Source: a virus
DNA: 64,000 bases
Strand: one strand, 5' to 3'
IMG/VR virus record: IMGVR_UViG_3300022562_002256
Span: 32,001 to 96,000 of that record
Under the pieces are notes generated by a model, which worked only from the letters and a program-made list of their open reading frames with translations, was not told the DNA's origin and searched no databases. Below, piece by piece: positions 662-22,000 of this stretch. How positions within the stretch are numbered: the stretch's first letter is position 1; each line of letters begins with the position of its first letter. The position numbers were made by a program, and so were the translations under genes.

Positions 662-878
662 TCATGCATCATTCGTGCCAACGGACTCAGTGGCATCATC
701 GGGTGGAGCGCAGTCCAACACAAGGCTCGTTCCTGTCTCGCTCAGGTGCTCGACCACCGCGGTCATTGCCTCGCTGGCAACCACCGCCCACCGATCGTCG
801 GCGGTGCGGCACGCGAGCTCGATGCACGGCGCCCAGGATGGCGTCACCGATGGGGCCGTAGTAGTTCGTGGCAGTCAT
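662..878 (-). pseudogene. Small gene with apparent +1 frameshift near 824
   Basis: ATG overlaps the upstream stop; the GC3-rich frame switches after GCC GTG; removing one base gives MTATNYYGPIGDAILGAVIELACRTADDRW... Confidence 0.45.
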
Positions 879-5269: not shown

Positions 5270-5365
5270 CACCAAGCGCGTAAGGCCGTGCGCGCTTGGT
5301 GCGTAGCGTCTTGCCAAAACCGCGCACAACTTTACGCGCCTACGTGGATCGACATAGATCCACGT
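5270..5365. repeat. Two inverted repeats between divergent promoters
   Basis: CACCAAGCGCG-N10-CGCGCTTGGTG (5270-5301) and ACGTGGATC-N6-GATCCACGT (5342-5365). Confidence 0.8.
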
Positions 5366-5424
5366 CGGTGCGTTTTCCGGCCGCCGCATGCCATCGGGCG
5401 GCGCCGCCTTGTGTTCGGTCGCCG

Positions 5425-12991: not shown

Positions 12992-13529
12992 ACCAATGGC
13001 ACGCCGCGGGGCATCGCATGGCGCGTGCCACTCCCACCCCCGCGATGCGCCCACGGTGCCCAGCAGCGCGGAGCGTGGCTGACACCGCTTGAAGGGTTGT
13101 CCCCTCCGTCACCACGTCGTCGATGAGGAGCACGTCCTCATGCGCGCCCAACCCATCCGGCTGATACGCCAGTGAGCGCAGGTGCTCGGCGATGGGTAGC
13201 CCGCCCCGCCCCTCTCGGCGACGCAGCCTCGATGACTCGACGTCGTACGCGCGCACCACTGGCTCCGCCACCCGCGAACCGCCACCCAGCCCGACCAGGG
13301 CTTCCGCGAGGGGCCGAAGGGAGGGGCGCGTCCACGAGGAGCGGGGCACCGGCACAACCACGCCACCGAACGAGGGAATGCACGCCGCAAGCGCCCGCGC
13401 CGAGCGGAGGGTGGCGTCGCGCTCCCCCGCTTTCAACGCCTCAATGATGTCCCGTGCGGCGGCGGTGCGCTGGCTCAACCCGCGGTAGCGCCGCGACAGG
13501 TAGGGGAGAGGAGCGACGATGTTGAGCAT
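12960..13529 (-). CDS. ComF-like type I phosphoribosyltransferase
   Basis: VVVPVP and the PRPP-binding loop VLLIDDVVTEGTTL. Confidence 0.85.
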   Translation of the reverse strand: MLNIVAPLPYLSRRYRGLSQRTAAARDIIEALKAGERDATLRSARALAACIPSFGGVVVPVPRSSWTRPSLRPLAEALVGLGGGSRVAEPVVRAYDVESSRLRRREGRGGLPIAEHLRSLAYQPDGLGAHEDVLLIDDVVTEGTTLQAVSATLRAAGHRGRIAGVGVARAMRCPAACHWSTWCTALRLT

Positions 13530-13698
13530 ACGCCAGCAACTTGCACGATCCGCGCCACAACGGCTCAAGTGGTCAAGCCGCAGCGAACCGCTTCCGTCGC
13601 TCGGCGACCATCGCGTCTGCATACTTCGCGGCACTCTCTGCCATCGTCTCAAATGCGAGCGGAACGGGAAACCGCGCGTCGCGGCCACCATCAACCGG

Positions 13699-14361
13699 CT
13701 ACGTCGCGGCAAGCGCATTGAACACCTCTGCCTCGGTCAGAGGCCGCCCTGCGGTGTTGATGCGTCGGAAGACCTCACGCGCAAGCGCCTCGTCGCCGTG
13801 GACGACGAGCACGCCGACCCGTGTCTCGTGGAGTCTCGCCGCCGCTGCGTAAAGACGAGTCCCGCGGTCTCTAGCCAGGCGCCACGCTGTGTCGTCGGCC
13901 GACGACACAGACTCGTACAAGCCAGTTAAGAATTCTTGACATGCAGCGGTTTCAAGGACCGCGCGCACGGGGGCGTACCGCGCGGGGGGGCGTACCGCGC
14001 TCGCCGGCGCATCGTGTTCTGCCACCACGTATCGATCCTCGTCCATGTCGAATCGAACCGGTGACGTGCCATCCCATGCACGTGCGAGAGACGTGACCCG
14101 CTGCTGACCATCGATCAGCCACGCCGTGGGACCGGTCTGCCAGACTACGATCGTGCCCACGGGCACGCCACGGTCCAGCGAGTCCCATAACGCGGCCTCG
14201 TCCGCCGGTTCCCAGCAGAAGGGGCGCTGAAATGCGGGCACGCGCCACCCGCCTGCTGCGGCGTGCTCGGCGACGTGCGCGACCCACAACGCTGCCGGCT
14301 CAACGCCACCCCACAACGAGTGCCGGCGTGTGGGAGGCGGGGTATGTTTGGGCCGACTCAT
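13699..14361 (-). CDS. Stand-alone DUF262 (GmrSD N-terminal / ParB-like) protein
   Basis: VPAFQRPFCW, LIDGQQRVTSL and VFRRINTAGRPL are the DUF262 signature motifs. Confidence 0.85.
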   Translation of the reverse strand: MSRPKHTPPPTRRHSLWGGVEPAALWVAHVAEHAAAGGWRVPAFQRPFCWEPADEAALWDSLDRGVPVGTIVVWQTGPTAWLIDGQQRVTSLARAWDGTSPVRFDMDEDRYVVAEHDAPASAVRPPARYAPVRAVLETAACQEFLTGLYESVSSADDTAWRLARDRGTRLYAAAARLHETRVGVLVVHGDEALAREVFRRINTAGRPLTEAEVFNALAAT

Positions 14362-14636
14362 TGCCCGACCTTGCGCCCCGCCACGTCCACGGCGTCGTCG
14401 ACGTAAACCCCACGTTCCTGGCGCCACGTGCGTCCCCATGTGGGCGGGGGGCCGTGCGCGTTCTCGCGCTCGAGTCGGGCGGGCACACCCTCAAGGCTGC
14501 CGGCCTTGAGGGACACCTGCGTTTGCGCTGGGCAGCGCCGCCCAAAAAGCTCTACCGCGTCGTCCGGTGACGCGGCGAGCAGCGCCCCGATGACCCGACC
14601 GGGGGGGAACACCTTGATAACGAACCACTCGCTCAT
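14358..14636 (-). CDS. Hypothetical protein
   Basis: MSEWFVIKV...; ATG 12 nt after the promoter; stop overlaps the DUF262 start. Confidence 0.6.
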   Translation of the reverse strand: MSEWFVIKVFPPGRVIGALLAASPDDAVELFGRRCPAQTQVSLKAGSLEGVPARLERENAHGPPPTWGRTWRQERGVYVDDAVDVAGRKVGQ

Positions 14637-14648
14637 GGCCGGCCATGT

Positions 14649-14664
14649 TGCACAGGCCGTGCCA
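14649..14664 (-). promoter_or_regulatory. sigma54-type promoter
   Basis: TGGCACGGCCTGTGCA; ATG 12 nt downstream. Confidence 0.7.
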
Positions 14665-14936
14665 ACCGAGATGCCCCTGCCGGCGAGGTGTTCAGTGGTT
14701 TGGTGGTGTTCAGTATTGGCTGTGGCGTTATGCCACGGAGTTGTTCCGGGATCGCGTGCTGACAGCCACTTGAGTGCTGGCTCTGCGATGTGTGGCACTC
14801 CGCCACACCGTGGCAACATGCCACGCCCCGCCGACGCGGCCAAGTGCTCGAAATCATTGACGCGGCGTGGATCGACCCCGATCCGCCACCGTAAGGCAAC
14901 ATACGGCACGCCCCCAACAACGCCACAACCACCAGG

Positions 14937-14952
14937 TGGCACGGCGCGTGCA
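14937..14952 (+). promoter_or_regulatory. sigma54-type promoter facing the non-coding region
   Basis: TGGCACGGCGCGTGCA; predicted +1 sequence GGCGTAACGACGG is identical to that of the 17733-17748 promoter. Confidence 0.7.
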
Positions 14953-14962
14953 TTCACCGTCT

Positions 14963-15660
14963 GGCGTAACGACGGTCGGCACCCGCAGCCCGCGTGTGCT
15001 ACAACCGCCGAGAACGGAGGAGACGGTCGCGGGGTTACGAGGTGGATCGGTCGAACTGGTCTTGTCGAGGTGATACCTCAATTAAGCGCGAAAGCGGCGC
15101 TGACCCCACCGAATCGAGGCACGTACGCACGAAAAATGTGGAGCACGGCGTGACCACACGTGATTGTCGACGTAACCCTGCGGCCAGTCCCCACGTCACG
15201 AATGGAGTTCGGTCAAGCATACCAGGGATAGAGTTCAGCCTGGGACGGTACGCGCCGCACCGTGAGAGTGCCAAGCGCCTCTTAGCCGTCAGTTAAAGCC
15301 CCGTAAAACCCCCCGCAGGGGGGCGGGGTCGGATGACCGGGCAAGTCATCCGACGTAAGCCGGGCACCCGACTCTATCCCTGATATGCTCGACCGAACCC
15401 CCACCTGTCTGCGGCACGCATTATGCATGAGTTCTCGACGTCGGCGTCGGCGACAGCCGACCGACCCGGTAGGCGGTGACCAATCCGCACCGGTCATCCC
15501 ACCCCGGCCTCTCCGGAGGCACCCACGTCCCGCCACCAGGCGGCCCTAACTGAGCCTCCCGCAAGGTCACCTCTCCCCGCCGTGGTGCGGCGAGTGGGCG
15601 ACCACCGGGAGCGACGACGAAGGAGCATGATGTCAGCGCGAAGCGATGTCGCCGCGCTGA
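14963..15660 (+). ncRNA. Candidate large structured RNA (boundaries and strand inferred)
   Basis: No convincing ORF; 15-bp helix 15025-15039/15171-15185; 31-bp helix 15204-15234/15371-15401; many perfect hairpins. Confidence 0.55.
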
Positions 15661-15664
15661 CCTT

Positions 15665-15747
15665 GGAGGGTTGCCCGAGTGGTCAAAGGGAGCAGATTGT
15701 AAATCTGCCGGCGAAAGCCTTCGGTGGTTCGAGTCCACCACCCCCCA
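15665..15747 (+). tRNA. tRNA-Tyr (GTA)
   Basis: Acceptor GGAGGGT/ACCCCCC; GCAGA-TTGTAAA-TCTGC; class II variable arm; GGTGG-TTCGAGT-CCACC; A73; no encoded CCA. Confidence 0.95.
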
Positions 15748-15775
15748 CCCAATTTCAATACCAACGGAGCACCAC

Positions 15776-16000
15776 ATGGCTACATCGATCCGATCCCCCC
15801 TTGCACGCGCGCGTCCCCATGCCGCGCGCCTCGCGGTCGTCGACGAGATGCCCGAGGCTGCCGACCTGCCATACCCTAACGACGGCGACTCGCTGGCCGT
15901 TTGGCGAGGCTTTGTCATCAATGCGGCCAACGCCCCGTCGGCGCCGCCGTCGTGGCACCTGACCGCCCTTGCGGCGCTCGTCGGCGAGGTGTCCGCGTGA
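15776..16000 (+). CDS. Hypothetical protein
   Basis: GGAG RBS; 74 aa. Confidence 0.55.
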   Translation: MATSIRSPLARARPHAARLAVVDEMPEAADLPYPNDGDSLAVWRGFVINAANAPSAPPSWHLTALAALVGEVSA

Positions 16001-16185
16001 AGCGCGTCGAGCAATTGTTGGACGTCATCGGCGATGACCAGCTACCAGCGACGCTGCGGTGGTTAGCCGCGTAGCATGCCCGGCAAGCCATCGCGGCCGA
16101 CGTGGGCCTGGGCGCGCTCGCGGGCCTTATCGCGGATGTCTGCTGACGCTCGCCGCCCTCCAGGCGCCTTGCGGAGTGTCCGCTC

Positions 16186-17349
16186 ATGGCTATGTTGGCG
16201 GCCATGGATTTTAGTCTTGCAGCGAAGGATTTCAGCGCAGCCGTACACCGCTGTACGGCTGCGACCAACAAAACCAGCGCGATGCCGGTGCTCGCAACCG
16301 TGTTGCTCCGGGCGGGCCCCGGTGAAGTCACGGTCACTGGCACCGACCTCTACAACACCGTCGCCGTTCGGGTGGCGGCTGATGTGGCGCGACCGGGGGC
16401 GTACTGCCTCGATGGGGTCGACCTGGCCAAGCGCATCCAAGCGATGCCGGGGGGAGTCGTCCAGATCGTTCAGGCTCCGCCAGCGACCCCGGATACCCCG
16501 CTCGGTCCCGTAAAAATCCAGGCAGTGGGGACACGACGGGCCTTCGTCATGAGTGGGATCCCCGCTCATGACTACCCAAACGTGGAGGCGTCGCTCGACG
16601 CCACCCCACTCGCCTTGCCCGCCGGGGTGCTCACGCGACTGCTACGCCAGGTCATGGCGTCGATTTCGACGGACGAAACCCGAGCACACGTCAACTGCGC
16701 TCGGGTGGAGTTGAAGGGTTCGTCGGCGCGCATGGTGTCAACCGACGGGCATCGTTTGACCCTTGCCACCGCCACCTTGCCCGACAAGGCGCTCCCCTGC
16801 GTCGAGGCGCTGCTCTCGCGCGCGGCGGCTGGCATCCTGCGCAAGCTCTTGGAAGAGGTGAACCCAGCCACGGATGTCAGCCTGCGTTTTGCATCGCCTT
16901 CGCTTGTTGTAAGCGTGGGGAACGTCACATTTACGACAAAGCTCGTAGACGCGGCGTTCCCGCCATATCAGCAGGTCGTTCCCGCCCCGCGCGACGTGTC
17001 GTACCGGGTTGCGCGCCTTCCCCTCCTGGACATGGTGAAGGCTGTCGCGATTGCGAGCGACACCCACGGGATTCGACTGACGTTTGGTCAGGACAATATC
17101 CTCGCGGAGGGGAACAATGCCGAGCTTGGAAGCGGATCCGACGAGATCGGATGTGTGGCCGGTCCTGGCGCGGTTCCACCGGCATTTGTAGCTGCCTTCA
17201 ACTCGAGTTACCTCCGGGACGCGCTGAGCGTCACCGACGTGGACGAGGTGGCTCTGACGATCGACGGGGAGCTCTCCCCGCTGGTCATCAAACCAGTCGG
17301 AGCCGACGAGCCGTCTTACCTGGCAGTCGTGATGCCCATGCGGGTCTGA
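16186..17349 (+). CDS. dnaN: DNA polymerase III beta sliding clamp
   Basis: SAMPVLATVLL, GTDL, ISTDETRAHVN, MVSTDGHRL, FPPYQQVVP, AFNSSYLRDAL, VVMPMR. Confidence 0.95.
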   Translation: MAMLAAMDFSLAAKDFSAAVHRCTAATNKTSAMPVLATVLLRAGPGEVTVTGTDLYNTVAVRVAADVARPGAYCLDGVDLAKRIQAMPGGVVQIVQAPPATPDTPLGPVKIQAVGTRRAFVMSGIPAHDYPNVEASLDATPLALPAGVLTRLLRQVMASISTDETRAHVNCARVELKGSSARMVSTDGHRLTLATATLPDKALPCVEALLSRAAAGILRKLLEEVNPATDVSLRFASPSLVVSVGNVTFTTKLVDAAFPPYQQVVPAPRDVSYRVARLPLLDMVKAVAIASDTHGIRLTFGQDNILAEGNNAELGSGSDEIGCVAGPGAVPPAFVAAFNSSYLRDALSVTDVDEVALTIDGELSPLVIKPVGADEPSYLAVVMPMRV

Positions 17350-17350
17350 C

Positions 17351-17548
17351 CTACTGCGCGGCACACTTGTGGGGATTGCCGTGATTGGCGGGGAGGCACT
17401 CGCCACACTCCTGGCAGAAAGCGTCGTCTCCGTAGCAAGCGGGGCAGACGAGCTTGGCGTCCTCGATCCGGTGGATTGGCCACCCCTTGCGGATCTCGCA
17501 AGGGGTGAGCACCGCGTGGCATACCTGGCAGTCGATGGTGGTGGTCAT
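17351..17548 (-). CDS. Cys-rich Zn-finger protein
   Basis: CQVC, CPAC, CQECGEC and H..H.C in 65 aa. Confidence 0.6.
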   Translation of the reverse strand: MTTTIDCQVCHAVLTPCEIRKGWPIHRIEDAKLVCPACYGDDAFCQECGECLPANHGNPHKCAAQ

Positions 17549-17556
17549 GGGTGGTT

Positions 17557-17679
17557 TCATTCGTCGGTGGTTTCGTCCGCCAGATCCATGGCCAATTCGT
17601 AGTAGTGCAGGAGTTCCAGGTCGCGGTGCATTTCGTCGGTGGTGGTGTAGGTTCCGTAATCGCAGGTGGTGGTATCCAT
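17557..17679 (-). CDS. 40-aa acidic peptide (not in ORF track)
   Basis: GAGG RBS; MDTTTCDYGTYTTTDEMHRDLELLHYYELAMDLADETTDE. Confidence 0.5.
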   Translation of the reverse strand: MDTTTCDYGTYTTTDEMHRDLELLHYYELAMDLADETTDE

Positions 17680-17732
17680 ATGGGTGCCTCGTCGGTGGAT
17701 TGGTGGTTGCCGTCGTTACGCCCATAGACACT

Positions 17733-17748
17733 TGCACGCACCGTGCCA
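17733..17748 (-). promoter_or_regulatory. sigma54-type promoter
   Basis: TGGCACGGTGCGTGCA. Confidence 0.75.
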
Positions 17749-17847
17749 ACAGGCAACGCGGGGTCGCCATGCCCACAAACCAGCGGCGATCTGGCGGAGT
17801 TGGCACTCCGCCCCGAACTTCGCGCGCTTGGATGACGACACATGGCG

Positions 17848-17978
17848 CGCACTTCTTGCGTTTAGCCGGCAGAATTTACCGGCACCTGATGGCAGCCACT
17901 TGAGTGCTACATCGTGAGCGCCACCGTAAGCGGATTCACCAACCTGCCAAAATCGACGCGCAAACGGTGCGTGTTGGG
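17848..17978. repeat. 131-bp intergenic repeat, copy A
   Basis: Ungapped match to 25257-25387 with 16 mismatches by manual count. Confidence 0.95.
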
Positions 17979-18063
17979 ATCATAGTCCAGAATCGGCGGA
18001 GCGCCCGGCTGGACTCAGCCCCCGAAACCACGACGGTTTCGATATGGCGACGTAGAGCACCGT

Positions 18064-18079
18064 TGGCACGGTGCGTGCA
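18064..18079 (+). promoter_or_regulatory. sigma54-type promoter
   Basis: TGGCACGGTGCGTGCA followed by AGTGCCGTCTGGCATT, homologous to 5441-5456. Confidence 0.75.
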
Positions 18080-18107
18080 AGTGCCGTCTGGCATTAGGAG
18101 GCTGAAC

Positions 18108-18539
18108 ATGCACGAGTGTGTAAAGGACGGCGAGTACATCCTGGGCGTGGAGGAGACGATGCCGCCTGGGCCTTACGACCTTGAGCCTCGGTGGGTGGAG
18201 TCGGAGACCACGCTCGGCCTCAGCGTGGGCACGGTCTGGGCCCCGAACGCCATCACGCCAACAAATGTCAAGGAGCATGTCATCGTGGCGTGGTCGGACG
18301 ACTCACTCGTCCTTCTCCGGCGCAAACAAGACGACGGTCGTCCGCCGTGGCTCCTCTCTCGACGGTTGTTCCTGGAGAAATACGTGGCTGTCGATGTCAC
18401 GTGGCTGCCGTTTGACGGCGATGGCTCCTGCCGTGACTGGTGCCTCGGCTGGGACGGAGCAAGCAGCCGCTGTGACTGCGGCAATCGCCGACTGCACTGG
18501 GAGACAAACGACGGCGTGCCAACCCCCACGGTGTGGTGA
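18108..18539 (+). CDS. Hypothetical protein
   Basis: AGGAGG RBS; 143 aa; C-terminal C..WC..W..C.CG motif. Confidence 0.7.
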   Translation: MHECVKDGEYILGVEETMPPGPYDLEPRWVESETTLGLSVGTVWAPNAITPTNVKEHVIVAWSDDSLVLLRRKQDDGRPPWLLSRRLFLEKYVAVDVTWLPFDGDGSCRDWCLGWDGASSRCDCGNRRLHWETNDGVPTPTVW

Positions 18540-18605
18540 CTCCGGCGGTGCCGAGGACTTCGATGAATGGATGATAGTCCAGGATCGGCGTACCGACCGC
18601 GCCGC

Positions 18606-18621
18606 TGGCACAGCACGTGCA
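18606..18621 (+). promoter_or_regulatory. sigma54-type promoter
   Basis: TGGCACAGCACGTGCA; ATG 13 nt downstream. Confidence 0.7.
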
Positions 18622-18634
18622 TCAACTTCTAGAC

Positions 18635-18811
18635 ATGAAGAAGTCGCCAAGCACTAAGAAACCATTGCCCGACTACGGTCCTGTCAACCCGCCGATGCGC
18701 GTTTGGTTGCGCATCGTCAATGGGCATGTTGTCGAAACGTTTTTTTCCTCGCAGGCCGCAAACGCCTCTGAGGACCAAGATCACATCCACGCCTACGTAC
18801 TCGAGGAGTGA
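18635..18811 (+). CDS. Hypothetical protein
   Basis: 58 aa, MKKSPSTKK... Confidence 0.55.
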   Translation: MKKSPSTKKPLPDYGPVNPPMRVWLRIVNGHVVETFFSSQAANASEDQDHIHAYVLEE

Positions 18812-19064
18812 TCGGCGTCGGCTGGCATCGAGTTGGTCTCAAGTGGACGTTGATGCATCGGCACCCAAGAACCCCACGGTGGGGGGTGAGGGATGGTGTG
18901 TGGTCATCCCTCATACCGGGTCGTCTCCCAGCCAGGTTGTCGCGGCACCGCTGGGGGTTCCTCCCCTTGCTCCCATCGACGGAAGACCTCGTCCATCTCG
19001 TCATCGGTTGGGTTATCACCGAGCCAAGCGAGCCATCGGTTCAGACGGGCAGCGGCATCGTTGC

Positions 19065-22000
19065 TCATGCCGGCACCATAACCACGGCGTCGACCATGGC
19101 TAGGGTCGGCGGGCTGTCCGGCGGCACAAGGAGCACCGTGCCGAGCCCCAACTCCCTAACCGCGGCGCGCAGCATGCTGAACCACGCCTCAACGCATGGC
19201 CCCCGCAGCGGGCCTGATGTCTCGTCAAAGGCGAGGGTCGCCCCCGGCACCGCGCCCCACCGTTCGATCACTACTCCCGCTGTCGCCAGCGCGAGCGCGG
19301 TGCTCAGTAGCGCTCGCTCGCCTTTGGAGCACGCTCGCACCTCTCGTTCGCGTTGGTCCGGATGGCTGATCGCGATCCACCGCGCCTGCTCAATCGAGCG
19401 CTTACCCCGTGCGGCCGTCCGTGTTCCACGGTACTCGATCGACCACCCCGCACCATCGGCTGCGCGTAACAAGTCGGTTGCGATCTCGGCGATCTCCTCC
19501 CCGGCCAACTCCATCTCGAGCGCCTGGACCCCGTCACGGCCGAGTGCTTGCGCCAGCTCGCCCGCGTCCTCGGCCCGCCGCTCCAGTTCTTCGGTGGCCT
19601 CACGGACTCGGGCAGCCCTCGCTGCGGCATCCCGCTCCCGGGCGAGGCGGTCTACCGCAAGCGCAAGCCGTGTCGCGGCGACGGAGGCGCCCCGCGCCGC
19701 GTGTTCTACGTCAGCTTGGCCCACCGGGGCCGGCTCGTCACCAAAAGCCTGTAGCACGGCCGAAGCGTCGGTGTGTCGGGCTGTCGCGTCGGCGAGTTGG
19801 TCGTCGAGGAGGGCCACGCGCTCAGCCGCTCGGATGGCCTGGGTCGAGCGGGTCTGGGCGGCGACCAGCGCGCGATGACGTGCTTCCAGCGAATGCCGTT
19901 CCGTCGCCACCTCGTCGATGCTCCTCAATGCCGCTGCGCGCGCGGCCCTGAGCGGGGCGAGTTCGTTCGCGATGGTGACAAGACGCGCGGCGATCCCGCC
20001 GCGCGTTCTCTCAGCGGTGGCGATGGCAGCGTCGATGTCGGCCACCAGGCGAGTCGGTGCACGTGCGAGTCGTTCCCGTGCTGCGGCAAGTCGCGCAGCG
20101 GCGCTGGCAGCGCGTGATGTCAGGTCCACGATGTTCGGATGGGTGTAGGCATCATCGGCGGCGATGGCACGGCGAGAGCGTCGCCTCACCTCGGCCACGC
20201 TGCTCGATGCCACGTCGGGAGATGCCGCGACAATCGCTGAGGCGGCGATCCGGCCGATGTCGGTGAGCGCGGTGCGCAAGGGGGTCACGCGCCCGGTCTG
20301 AGCGACGTGCGTGGCTGCTTCCAGCGCGGCGGCGGCGGCTCTCTCGGATGCCTCCAACTCCGGGAGGCTCTCCCGCAGCCTCTCGGCACCCTCGGCCTGG
20401 GTTCGCTCCGCACGCAAAGCGTCGAGGCGGTGGTCGATGTCTGCAAGCGCGCGGGCTGCCTCGTGTTCGGCGTCGCGACTGGAGCGAATCGCCTCGTCGG
20501 CTGTGCTGACGTCAGCTCGCAAAACGCTCTCCCGCTGGCGCAGCACATCGAGCGCTTCAACCACCTCCTCGATGTGTTCGGGGGGGGGCGCTGCGCAATC
20601 GGCCGCTTGTCTTGCCGCCGCGAGCTCGGTGGTCAGCCGTTCGACTCGCACTGCCGCCGCGTCGGCGGTGGTGCAAAGCGCGCGCCACTGAGTCCACCGC
20701 GCCGCGTCGACGCGGGCTTGAGCGGCGGCGCAGTCGGCGGTGTGGCTTGCGGCCGTCGCATCGACAACCGCTCGTTCGGCACCCGTAACGTCGACGGGAC
20801 CGATCGCTGTGCTCTCTGTGCGCTTAGCGGCGACATCCTTGTCGATCGCGGCCCGCGCCGCCCGTGCCGCCGCTGCCCATGCTTCATAGTTCCCGGCGCC
20901 CAGGATGCCCAATAACGCGGCTTTCAGCCCCGAGTCGTACAGCGTGCCGATCCCATCGCTCCCGTCCCATAGAAAGGCGAACGCGAGCAACAGCACCGGG
21001 TCGGGCAGGTGCTGGCGCGCCCACTCACGGAACGCCTGGCGCCCGCCGACGAACGTGGCGGCGTCCTCGCCCAACGGGCAAACACGCACGGTGCCACCGC
21101 CATCGGTCATTTCGTGATGGATTGTCCATGCCCCTGTGGCGGTGACAACCTCCACCTCGAGATACGGGTTGGGGCCGGTGACCATCCTGTCGAACGCGCC
21201 GTGTGTGGGGCTTTCCTCTCGCAGCGCCGCGAGCATGAGACCGAGCAGCGTGCTCTTCCCCGCCCCGTTCCCGCCCGCGAGTGCCACGATCGGCGGCATA
21301 TCGCGCACCAGATACTCGGCCTCGCCGACGAAAGGGCCGAGCCCCCGACACGCTACACGCTCGAATCGCACCAGTCCCCCAGCGTCTTCCGGGGATGTCG
21401 CCACCATCTCATCGAGCATGGCGAGCACCCGCTCCCGACGTGCCGGCCGTCGACCAATGGCTGTCCAATAGGCGTCGAGCCTATCGTGGACGGACGGAAC
21501 CTTGTCGATGCCCGCCGCACGCGCACGGGTGACCCGTTGGGGCACAGGTTCAAGTTTGACCGCGACCGCCCCCGCGGCGAGGATGTCGTCTCGCGCCGAC
21601 TCGGCGGCGGCCACGATGCACGCGCGGTTGGCGTCGGTGGTGGTGTAACGAAGCCGCACGTCCGCACCTCGACACGACGCCAGCGTCGGTGTCGCGTCGC
21701 CTGCAGCGTGCTCTCGCCCGTAGGACAACACCAGACCCGCCCCGGCTACCCAGTTGCCAACAAGCAGAACCAGCGGCGTGGCGGGGGCGATGCGCCGCTC
21801 GAACGATACACGACGCCCGTCGACGTGAACAAGTACATAGCCCTTTGGCCCCAGCTCGCCGTATGTCGTGGCATACGGCGCCCCCGGGTAGCAGGCTGGC
21901 CGCCCCCCGATGAGCCAATCCTGCGCCGCGTGGACGTGGCCGAGTAGGTAAGCGTCGGCCGCCGCGCGAGCCAGGTCGTCGTTTGTCACGTCGAGGTCGC

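Follow-up and report, generated by a model that had tools for sequence, protein, structure and literature searches.

A gene-free region upstream of a phage tRNA-Tyr gene as a possible composite control and leader region containing a candidate structured RNA

The closest described systems are the GOLLD and ROOL RNAs, which are large ornate RNAs of hundreds of nucleotides found in phage DNA beside tRNA genes (Weinberg et al., PMC5737381; cryo-EM preprint 10.1101/2024.12.08.627333). The function of GOLLD and ROOL beside phage tRNA genes is still unknown. The tRNA cluster of phage T4 yields small stable non-tRNA RNAs (species 1 and 2, rnaC/rnaD) of ~120-140 nt, which are partly tRNA-like and are freed from tRNA transcripts by host processing enzymes. 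RNase III stems are found at the early-region sites of phage T7 and in the stalks flanking 16S and 23S rRNA. Correia- and MITE-type elements are ~200 bp long, carry long terminal inverted repeats, and form RNase III-sensitive hairpins when they are transcribed.

We analyzed a gene-free region in a virus record of 198,045 bp with direct terminal repeats and 66% G+C. The window is the whole stretch of 64,000 nt that was analyzed, corresponding to bases 32001-96000 of the record, and positions refer to the window unless genome positions are stated. The phage sliding clamp is 40% identical to the cellular DnaN of Polyangiaceae (Polyangium and Sorangium), which are its nearest relatives; therefore, a myxobacterial (Polyangia) host is likely. 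No close phage relative was found in IMG/VR, JGI metagenomes or GenBank phages. Like GOLLD and ROOL, the region is hundreds of nucleotides long and non-coding, and it lies in phage DNA adjoining a tRNA gene, in a virus with direct terminal repeats in which tRNA-Tyr begins 4 nt downstream of the candidate RNA. However, it lacks a covariance-model match, and its relatives found here are strain fragments only. Its folding signal is concentrated in one 198-nt element whose 31-bp near-perfect duplex is atypical of those families, and an internal promoter motif splits the region. In our preferred reading, to which we assign a rough probability of 0.5, the locus serves a tRNA-Tyr/orf74/dnaN transcription unit as its composite control and leader region, in which a first promoter (P1) would make an RNA or leader of ~440 nt composed of two domains, D1 and D2. 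The chances that D1-D2 is a structured RNA or leader under selection are about even. The features of the locus are as follows.

14358-14636, minus strand: gene of 92 aa at the left edge of the gene-free stretch (JGI call), with its ATG 12 nt past the minus-strand promoter
14649-14664, minus strand: sigma-54-type motif TGGCACGGCCTGTGCA, strict match, divergent partner of P1, predicted to serve the 92-aa gene
14691-14907, no strand: enhancer-like DNA cassette of ~200 bp between the divergent promoters, found by a blastn comparison of the region with the complete genome
Genome 15269-15473 (+), 106311-106504 (-) and 157184-157375 (-): other copies of the cassette (blastn)
14937-14952, plus strand: P1, sigma-54-type motif TGGCACGGCGCGTGCA, strict match, predicted start ~14963
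14963-14975, plus strand: 13-mer GGCGTAACGACGG, predicted 5′ end of the P1 transcript, common to the transcript of the 17733(-) promoter
14963-15103, plus strand: fast-evolving 5′ segment, in which one strain has 4 single-base deletions besides at least 9 substitutions
15022-15189, plus strand: D1, multibranch fold with a closing helix of 14-15 bp (15025-39/15171-85)
15204-15401, plus strand: D2 (198 nt), in which a 31-bp stem and a 6-bp helix lead to a four-way junction bearing three hairpins
15412-15427, plus strand: P2, second sigma-54-type motif CGGCACGCATTATGCA, relaxed match, predicted start ~15439
15438-15663, plus strand: GC-rich 225-nt leader from P2 to the tRNA, with hairpins at 15446-61, 15475-98, 15509-15611 and 15634-59
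15664-15751, plus strand: tRNA-Tyr (GTA) with a long variable arm (ARAGORN; Rfam RF00005 tRNA, 50.9 bits)
15776-16000, plus strand: orf74, located 25 nt past the tRNA and preceded by the ribosome-binding site GGAG (JGI call)
16186-17349, plus strand: sliding clamp gene (DnaN), the next plus-strand gene

The region 14637-15775 contains no gene and is non-coding. On a JGI contig (L005) identical to window positions 13517-21349, the JGI gene caller left the interval between the 92-aa gene and orf74 blank. GC content differs among codon phases by at most 0.1 over 14650-15760, compared with 0.2-0.3 in the flanking genes. No ORF overlapping the region, including the long chance ORFs, matched PHROG or Pfam, and no protein is on record for the spurious ORF across it. 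In one strain variant (X2), four one-base deletions (15053, 15057, 15060 and 15084; net -4) disrupt every long ORF there. The gene caller, codon-phase GC, PHROG/Pfam searches and frame-breaking indels thus bear out the first-pass annotation, which had reported about 1.1 kb without a convincing ORF.

The GG-N10-GC motif YGGCAY-N6-TGCW is enriched over chance and is oriented into genes, which at the motif level marks the family of P1 and P2 as sigma-54-type promoters. Where chance predicts 0.17 copies of the strict 16-mer YGGCACR-N4-GTGCA, the window contains 11, and the whole genome has 43; for the relaxed motif, the window contains 16 (1.8 expected) and the genome 69. P1 and P2 carry the -24/-12 signature of the enhancer-dependent sigma-54 promoters (GG-N10-GC), which is used ~40-70 times in this phage. 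Most of the strict copies have an ATG 12-14 nt downstream, and most such promoters in this phage launch near-leaderless mRNAs, whereas P1 and P2 are predicted to launch long non-coding RNA instead. The promoter at 14937 had been described as lacking a downstream ATG, and indeed the strict motif at 14937-14952 is followed by none within 80 nt. Its start near 14963 is predicted from the GG-N10-GC geometry. The start sequence had also been said to be common to two promoters, and GGCGTAACGACGG does recur after the 17733(-) promoter, where it forms the start of a 45-nt leader that includes a ribosome-binding site. Upstream of P1, the cassette is one of four genome copies that are 88-91% identical and all adjoin sigma-54-type promoters; we take it to be regulatory DNA, outside any RNA. 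The cassette repeats raise the contig depth over 14700-14900 in metagenome runs.

P2 was recognized from a motif match only, with ~0.01 chance matches expected on the plus strand of these 700 nt. It is located 11 nt past D2, inside the candidate RNA, and shares ATGCATGAG with the promoter (665-680, minus strand) that directly precedes the tRNA-mimic gene of the phage. No sigma-54-type motif was found on the plus strand between P2 and the clamp gene; therefore, P1 and P2 probably serve tRNA-Tyr, orf74 and dnaN. Between 14649 and 17733, no promoter motif on the minus strand points into the region, and RNA from the plus strand is therefore the parsimonious, although not proven, reading. Outside the window, at genome 106575-106650 (+), another strict promoter motif without an ATG is followed after ~30 nt by GTTGCGACC-TT-GTTCGCAAC plus GTTTT. 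This is a terminator-like hairpin, and the site is a candidate short sRNA gene.

The first-pass annotation had proposed a single ornate non-coding RNA of ~700 nt over 14963-15660, of the GOLLD/ROOL kind and made as a unit beside tRNA-Tyr. The 15-bp helix, the 31-bp helix and the small hairpins on which it was based exist, with the two large helices at 15025-39/15171-85 and 15204-34/15371-401. The folding z-score of 14963-15660 also favors this proposal, being -8.4 on the plus strand and -5.9 on the minus strand against dinucleotide shuffles. However, this score stems mostly from the 198 nt of D2. As a background we scored 290 plus-strand segments of 200 nt at steps of 100 nt (mean z -0.38, sd 1.45), and the only extreme outlier was 15201-15400 (z -10.6, rank 1). 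The segments at 15001 (z -3.6, rank 6) and 15501 (z -2.9, rank 17) were lower in rank, and those at 14901, 15101, 15301 and 15401 were ordinary (+0.7, +1.6, -0.6 and -0.8). With z -3.0 for D1 and z between -2.7 and -3.5 for the 3′ part, these two reach no further than the top 2-6% of the genome background. In comparison with shuffles and background, D2 is therefore far beyond expectation, D1 is borderline and the 3′ leader lies within the background. The small perfect hairpins claimed near the tRNA are present, but the scan ranks (17 for 15501; z -0.8 at 15401) show that they are not beyond the norm of this GC-rich genome.

D2 consists of a stem of 31 pairs (pair probability ~1.0) that includes three mismatches and perfect stretches of 8, 6 and 13 bp, and a crown with hairpins such as C6-GCA-G6 and, at 15328-15354, one of 10 perfect pairs. 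Its score (15200-15405; 200 shuffles, as for each domain) is -8.1 on the plus strand and -8.6 on the minus strand. All three stem mismatches are A·C on the plus strand and thus G·U on the minus strand, which is the opposite of the pattern predicted from selection on a plus-strand RNA and would occur with a chance of 1 in 8 under neutrality. The inner helices have two G·U pairs on the plus strand, and D2 is therefore strand-ambiguous. It folds equally well on both strands.

These properties bring in the main rival explanation, in which D2 and its perfect inner palindromes act as DNA for P2, for example by binding an activator or a repressor 58-103 bp upstream of the motif, or as an architectural or cruciform-prone repeat, and the transcript is an unselected leader. 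The equal folding of the two strands and the A·C mismatches on the transcribed strand are both in its favor. No inverted repeat within 500 nt anywhere in the 198-kb genome is longer than the arms of D2 (28-31 nt), and the other three long inverted repeats of the genome are DNA-level divergent promoter pairs. Moreover, the second rank in the scan belongs to segment 5201 (5270-5373; z -5.35 in 29 kb), which is non-transcribed enhancer DNA between divergent promoters and holds palindromes of 16 and 17 nt located 50-150 bp upstream of its promoters. DNA-level repeats can therefore yield strong z-scores in this genome, and the palindrome at 15328-15354 lies at a similar distance from P2. On the other hand, a 31-bp repeat with a 136-bp spacer is an unusual layout for an operator or enhancer. 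Two related stems, GGATGAC/GTCATCC (15331-51) and GGTGACC/GGTCATC (15475-98), have spacers of 7 and 10-12 nt, respectively; spacers that differ in this way are more readily explained by RNA loops than by the binding sites of a single dimeric protein. Being downstream of P1, the region is probably transcribed anyway. D1, which is far from P2, also shows structure-preserving variation and a better plus-strand fold. On balance, we regard action at the DNA level as a real but minority possibility.

As an RNA, D2 would resemble the RNase III stems in being a long duplex of distant segments around a structured RNA, in a predicted polycistronic transcript bearing a tRNA. The stem exceeds the duplex of at least 20 bp that characterizes an RNase III processing stem, a comparison that concerns duplex length only. 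It differs in having three A·C mismatches on the presumed RNA strand and no sequence relation to the known stems, and its cleavage is a prediction. No terminator-like site (a GC-rich stem with a U tract) was found on the plus strand in 14637-15663, and D2 is followed by CCCCCACCTG. The segment 15321-40 in the crown is 90% complementary over 20 nt to 15490-15509 in the leader downstream of P2. This pairing competes with the hairpins 15300-15354 and 15475-15498, and it is a possible alternative only in P1 transcripts. A duplication relating the hairpins at 15312-68 and 15462-514 is not claimed, given a weak likeness of 32 of 57 columns.

Three other sediment studies yielded variant contigs, which match parts of the region at 89-99% identity; outside the source sample, 15306-15419 had no contig cover. 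The sequencing runs listed as containing the stretch included no RNA run. Divergence is uneven. The 5′ segment 14963-15103 has at least 13 events in 141 nt (~9%), and 15104-15305 has 2 differences in 202 nt (~1%); the coding flanks diverge by ~3%. Over 15139-15305, which reaches into D2, just 2 differences occur in a strain that diverges by ~9% immediately upstream. The natural variants tend to preserve the predicted folding of D1, a 5′ hairpin and the D2 stem. The hairpin at 14980-14998 survives in the variant, where C14983A turns a C·U mismatch into an A-U pair and G14979A breaks the end pair; the variant test gave p 0.11. In the D2 stem, 15206 A>G mends one of the A·C mismatches.

In D1, z is -2.95 on the plus strand and -1.51 on the minus strand (200 shuffles), and the closing helix contains two G·U pairs on the plus strand, on which D1 folds better. 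The change 15031 G>A converts one G·U pair of this helix into A-U. The X2 version of D1 was rebuilt from nine changes in a difference table, and its minimum free energy was compared with that of a simple null model, in which the same nine changes were placed at random positions with the same bases; this comparison covers one lineage. The variant folds with -73.5 kcal/mol, compared with -70.6 kcal/mol for the reference and -65.1 +/- 4.0 kcal/mol for the null, 2% of which was as stable (p ~0.02). Both partners of the A15085-T15101 pair are lost through deletion of A15084/85 and a change equivalent to deletion of T15101, and three deletions with a T>G change rebuild the inner helices GGTCA/TGACC and CGTGT/GCACG against an unaltered 3′ strand. 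On the minus strand, the test is equally significant (p 0.018); therefore, it indicates selection for self-complementarity and does not single out a strand. The variation in D1 tends to preserve the predicted structure, and in this one lineage it is suggestive of such selection.

The structured part is followed by the leader between P2 and the tRNA. It has a z of -2.71 on the plus strand, with 3 of 200 shuffles as good, and the slightly longer 3′ part (15414-15663) has -3.5 on the plus strand and -3.4 on the minus strand (200 shuffles). The variant changes in this leader are no better than random (p 0.12), and these 225 nt are without significant structural constraint. The minimum free energy structure closes the 3′ domain by a 9-bp helix (15418-26/15625-33), the 5′ arm of which is the -12 element of P2 itself.

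The tRNA-Tyr that had been placed just 3′ of the region was recovered at 15664-15751 by both ARAGORN and Rfam. Its acceptor stem (15665-15747) has an A·C mismatch at the third pair, flagged by cmscan, and CCA is not encoded, the 3′ end being ACCCA. In orf74, an X3 contig deletes 15749-15864 (116 nt directly past the tRNA) and an X2 contig deletes 17 nt at 15806. These deletions remove or frameshift the first half of orf74; therefore, this half is not conserved, and the annotated start or the reality of the gene appears doubtful. The tRNA-mimic and tRNA-Tyr each have, no more than ~25 nt past their end, a similar junction (530-560, ACGGAAGGAGCAC.., and 15752-15778, AACGGAGCAC.., respectively). 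Both junctions carry a ribosome-binding site and a start codon, unlike the usual leaderless genes of the phage.

Searches for relatives retrieved only strain fragments of 90-99% identity. The tRNA was the sole match of blastn in distant mode against 50,697 phage records. Searches of IMG/VR via the clamp and the RecD-like protein gave no relatives, those of JGI metagenomes via the clamp gave 19%-identity matches only, and in tblastn with the RecD-like protein no known phage exceeded 43% identity. Sequences of D1 and of the D2 arm, used as exact patterns, were absent from 185,579 species genomes and IMG/VR. Against four Polyangiaceae and 401 Polyangiales-order genomes, blastn gave GC-rich chance matches of 20-60 nt (best E 6e-5 per genome). 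In the cmscan against 4227 Rfam families, tRNA alone reached the gathering score, and only chance-level matches (AS1726, VA and TYMV_upPK) appeared at E<=10. Judged by the covariance models, the locus does not belong to GOLLD or ROOL, with which it shares the context only.

Taken together, these observations make a single RNA of ~700 nt unlikely. The context of phage and tRNA does resemble that of GOLLD and ROOL (PMC5737381), and both the 9-bp helix that closes the 3′ domain and the 20-nt complementarity that joins D2 to the 3′ part speak for a single unit. However, the fold signal resides almost entirely in 198 nt, P2 lies inside and overlaps an arm of that same helix, the first 140 nt evolve at ~9% with indels, the 3′ domain lacks variant-based constraint, there is no Rfam match at E<=10, and one X2 contig may lack 15182-15503 entirely. 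The proposal as first made is supported only in part. Its fallback, an array of smaller RNAs that share their processing with tRNA-Tyr, agrees better with the evidence, with the processing itself as the presumed part.

The X2 contig just mentioned is 268 nt long and of low depth, and it may join 15181 to 15504, removing D2 and P2. It has a 43-nt flank with 80% likeness, and we set the joint aside as a basis for conclusions, this being a single weakly supported contig. It would suggest a presence/absence polymorphism, as expected if D2, perhaps with P2 as a 322-nt block, were a small non-autonomous mobile element or remnant of the MITE or Correia type inserted in the tRNA leader. D2 has about the size of such elements (198 bp) and 31-bp terminal inverted repeats. 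Unlike them, it is present as a single copy in the phage, no target-site duplication is found at either candidate boundary, where the flanks differ, and no relatives were found: its arm pattern is absent from the species genomes and IMG/VR, and D2 matched the Polyangiales-order genomes no better than by chance. We consider this origin unlikely as well. The inverted repeats flanking a structured core at 15204-15401 also recall a retron-like msr/msd RNA. The complete 198-kb genome has no reverse transcriptase (PF00078), for which control genomes were positive; therefore, D2 is not a retron. No Rfam retron family matched either, and we regard this already disfavored explanation as negligible.

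Transcripts can also prime replication, as in ColE1 RNA II and the promoter-dependent origins of T4 and T7. The RNA from P1, P2 or both might likewise form an R-loop and prime replication, and the promoter without an ORF lies beside dnaN, an SbcCD-like gene and helicases, with a G-rich run at 15318-15328. However, there is no AT-rich unwinding element (the minimum GC over 60 nt is 0.53 here and 0.37-0.47 elsewhere in the genome), neither turn of the cumulative GC skew (genome 71.7 kb and 116.5 kb) falls at 47 kb, and the unique part contains no iterons. An origin-priming transcript therefore seems very unlikely.

We return to the composite control and leader region. The cassette at 14691-14907 would serve the divergent promoter pair, and from P1 a non-coding transcript would begin near 14963, its first ~440 nt comprising the variable 5′ part, D1 and D2. 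P2 would start the weakly constrained 225-nt leader that runs into tRNA-Tyr. The long D2 duplex may operate on the RNA as a processing or 3′-end element, either as an RNase III-type substrate or as a U-less stem that stops or stabilizes the P1 RNA. A stable D1-D2 RNA of ~440 nt would thereby be set apart from the portion with the tRNA. The 5′ end of tRNA-Tyr would be freed by RNase P, and the orf74 and dnaN mRNA would extend further downstream. The proposed order is thus cassette, P1, ~440-nt RNA, P2, 225-nt leader, tRNA-Tyr, orf74 and dnaN. As in the T4 tRNA cluster, a non-tRNA RNA would share a transcript with a phage tRNA. The locus differs from T4 in that nothing tRNA-like lies upstream of tRNA-Tyr: ARAGORN at relaxed settings found no additional tRNA-like gene there, and its intron-mode calls were artefacts.

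A bolder version holds that D1-D2 (~14963-15405) represents a new class of stable phage non-coding RNA in a singleton lineage, launched by a sigma-54-type promoter, cut from the tRNA operon transcript at the 31-bp stem and having a role in trans, such as that of a scaffold or decoy while the phage infects a myxobacterium. We consider this improbable. If it were true, such a singleton would be invisible to comparative RNA discovery. The present value of the locus is that of a singleton with defined targets (D1, D2 and P2) for the mapping of RNA ends and for deeper mining of sediment metagenomes. Such an RNA would show that a phage whose promoters normally give near-leaderless mRNAs reserves two of them for long non-coding RNA ahead of replication genes and a tRNA. 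Another case without relation to GOLLD and ROOL, in a phage that is GC-rich and probably infects myxobacteria, would broaden the puzzle that these two RNAs pose.
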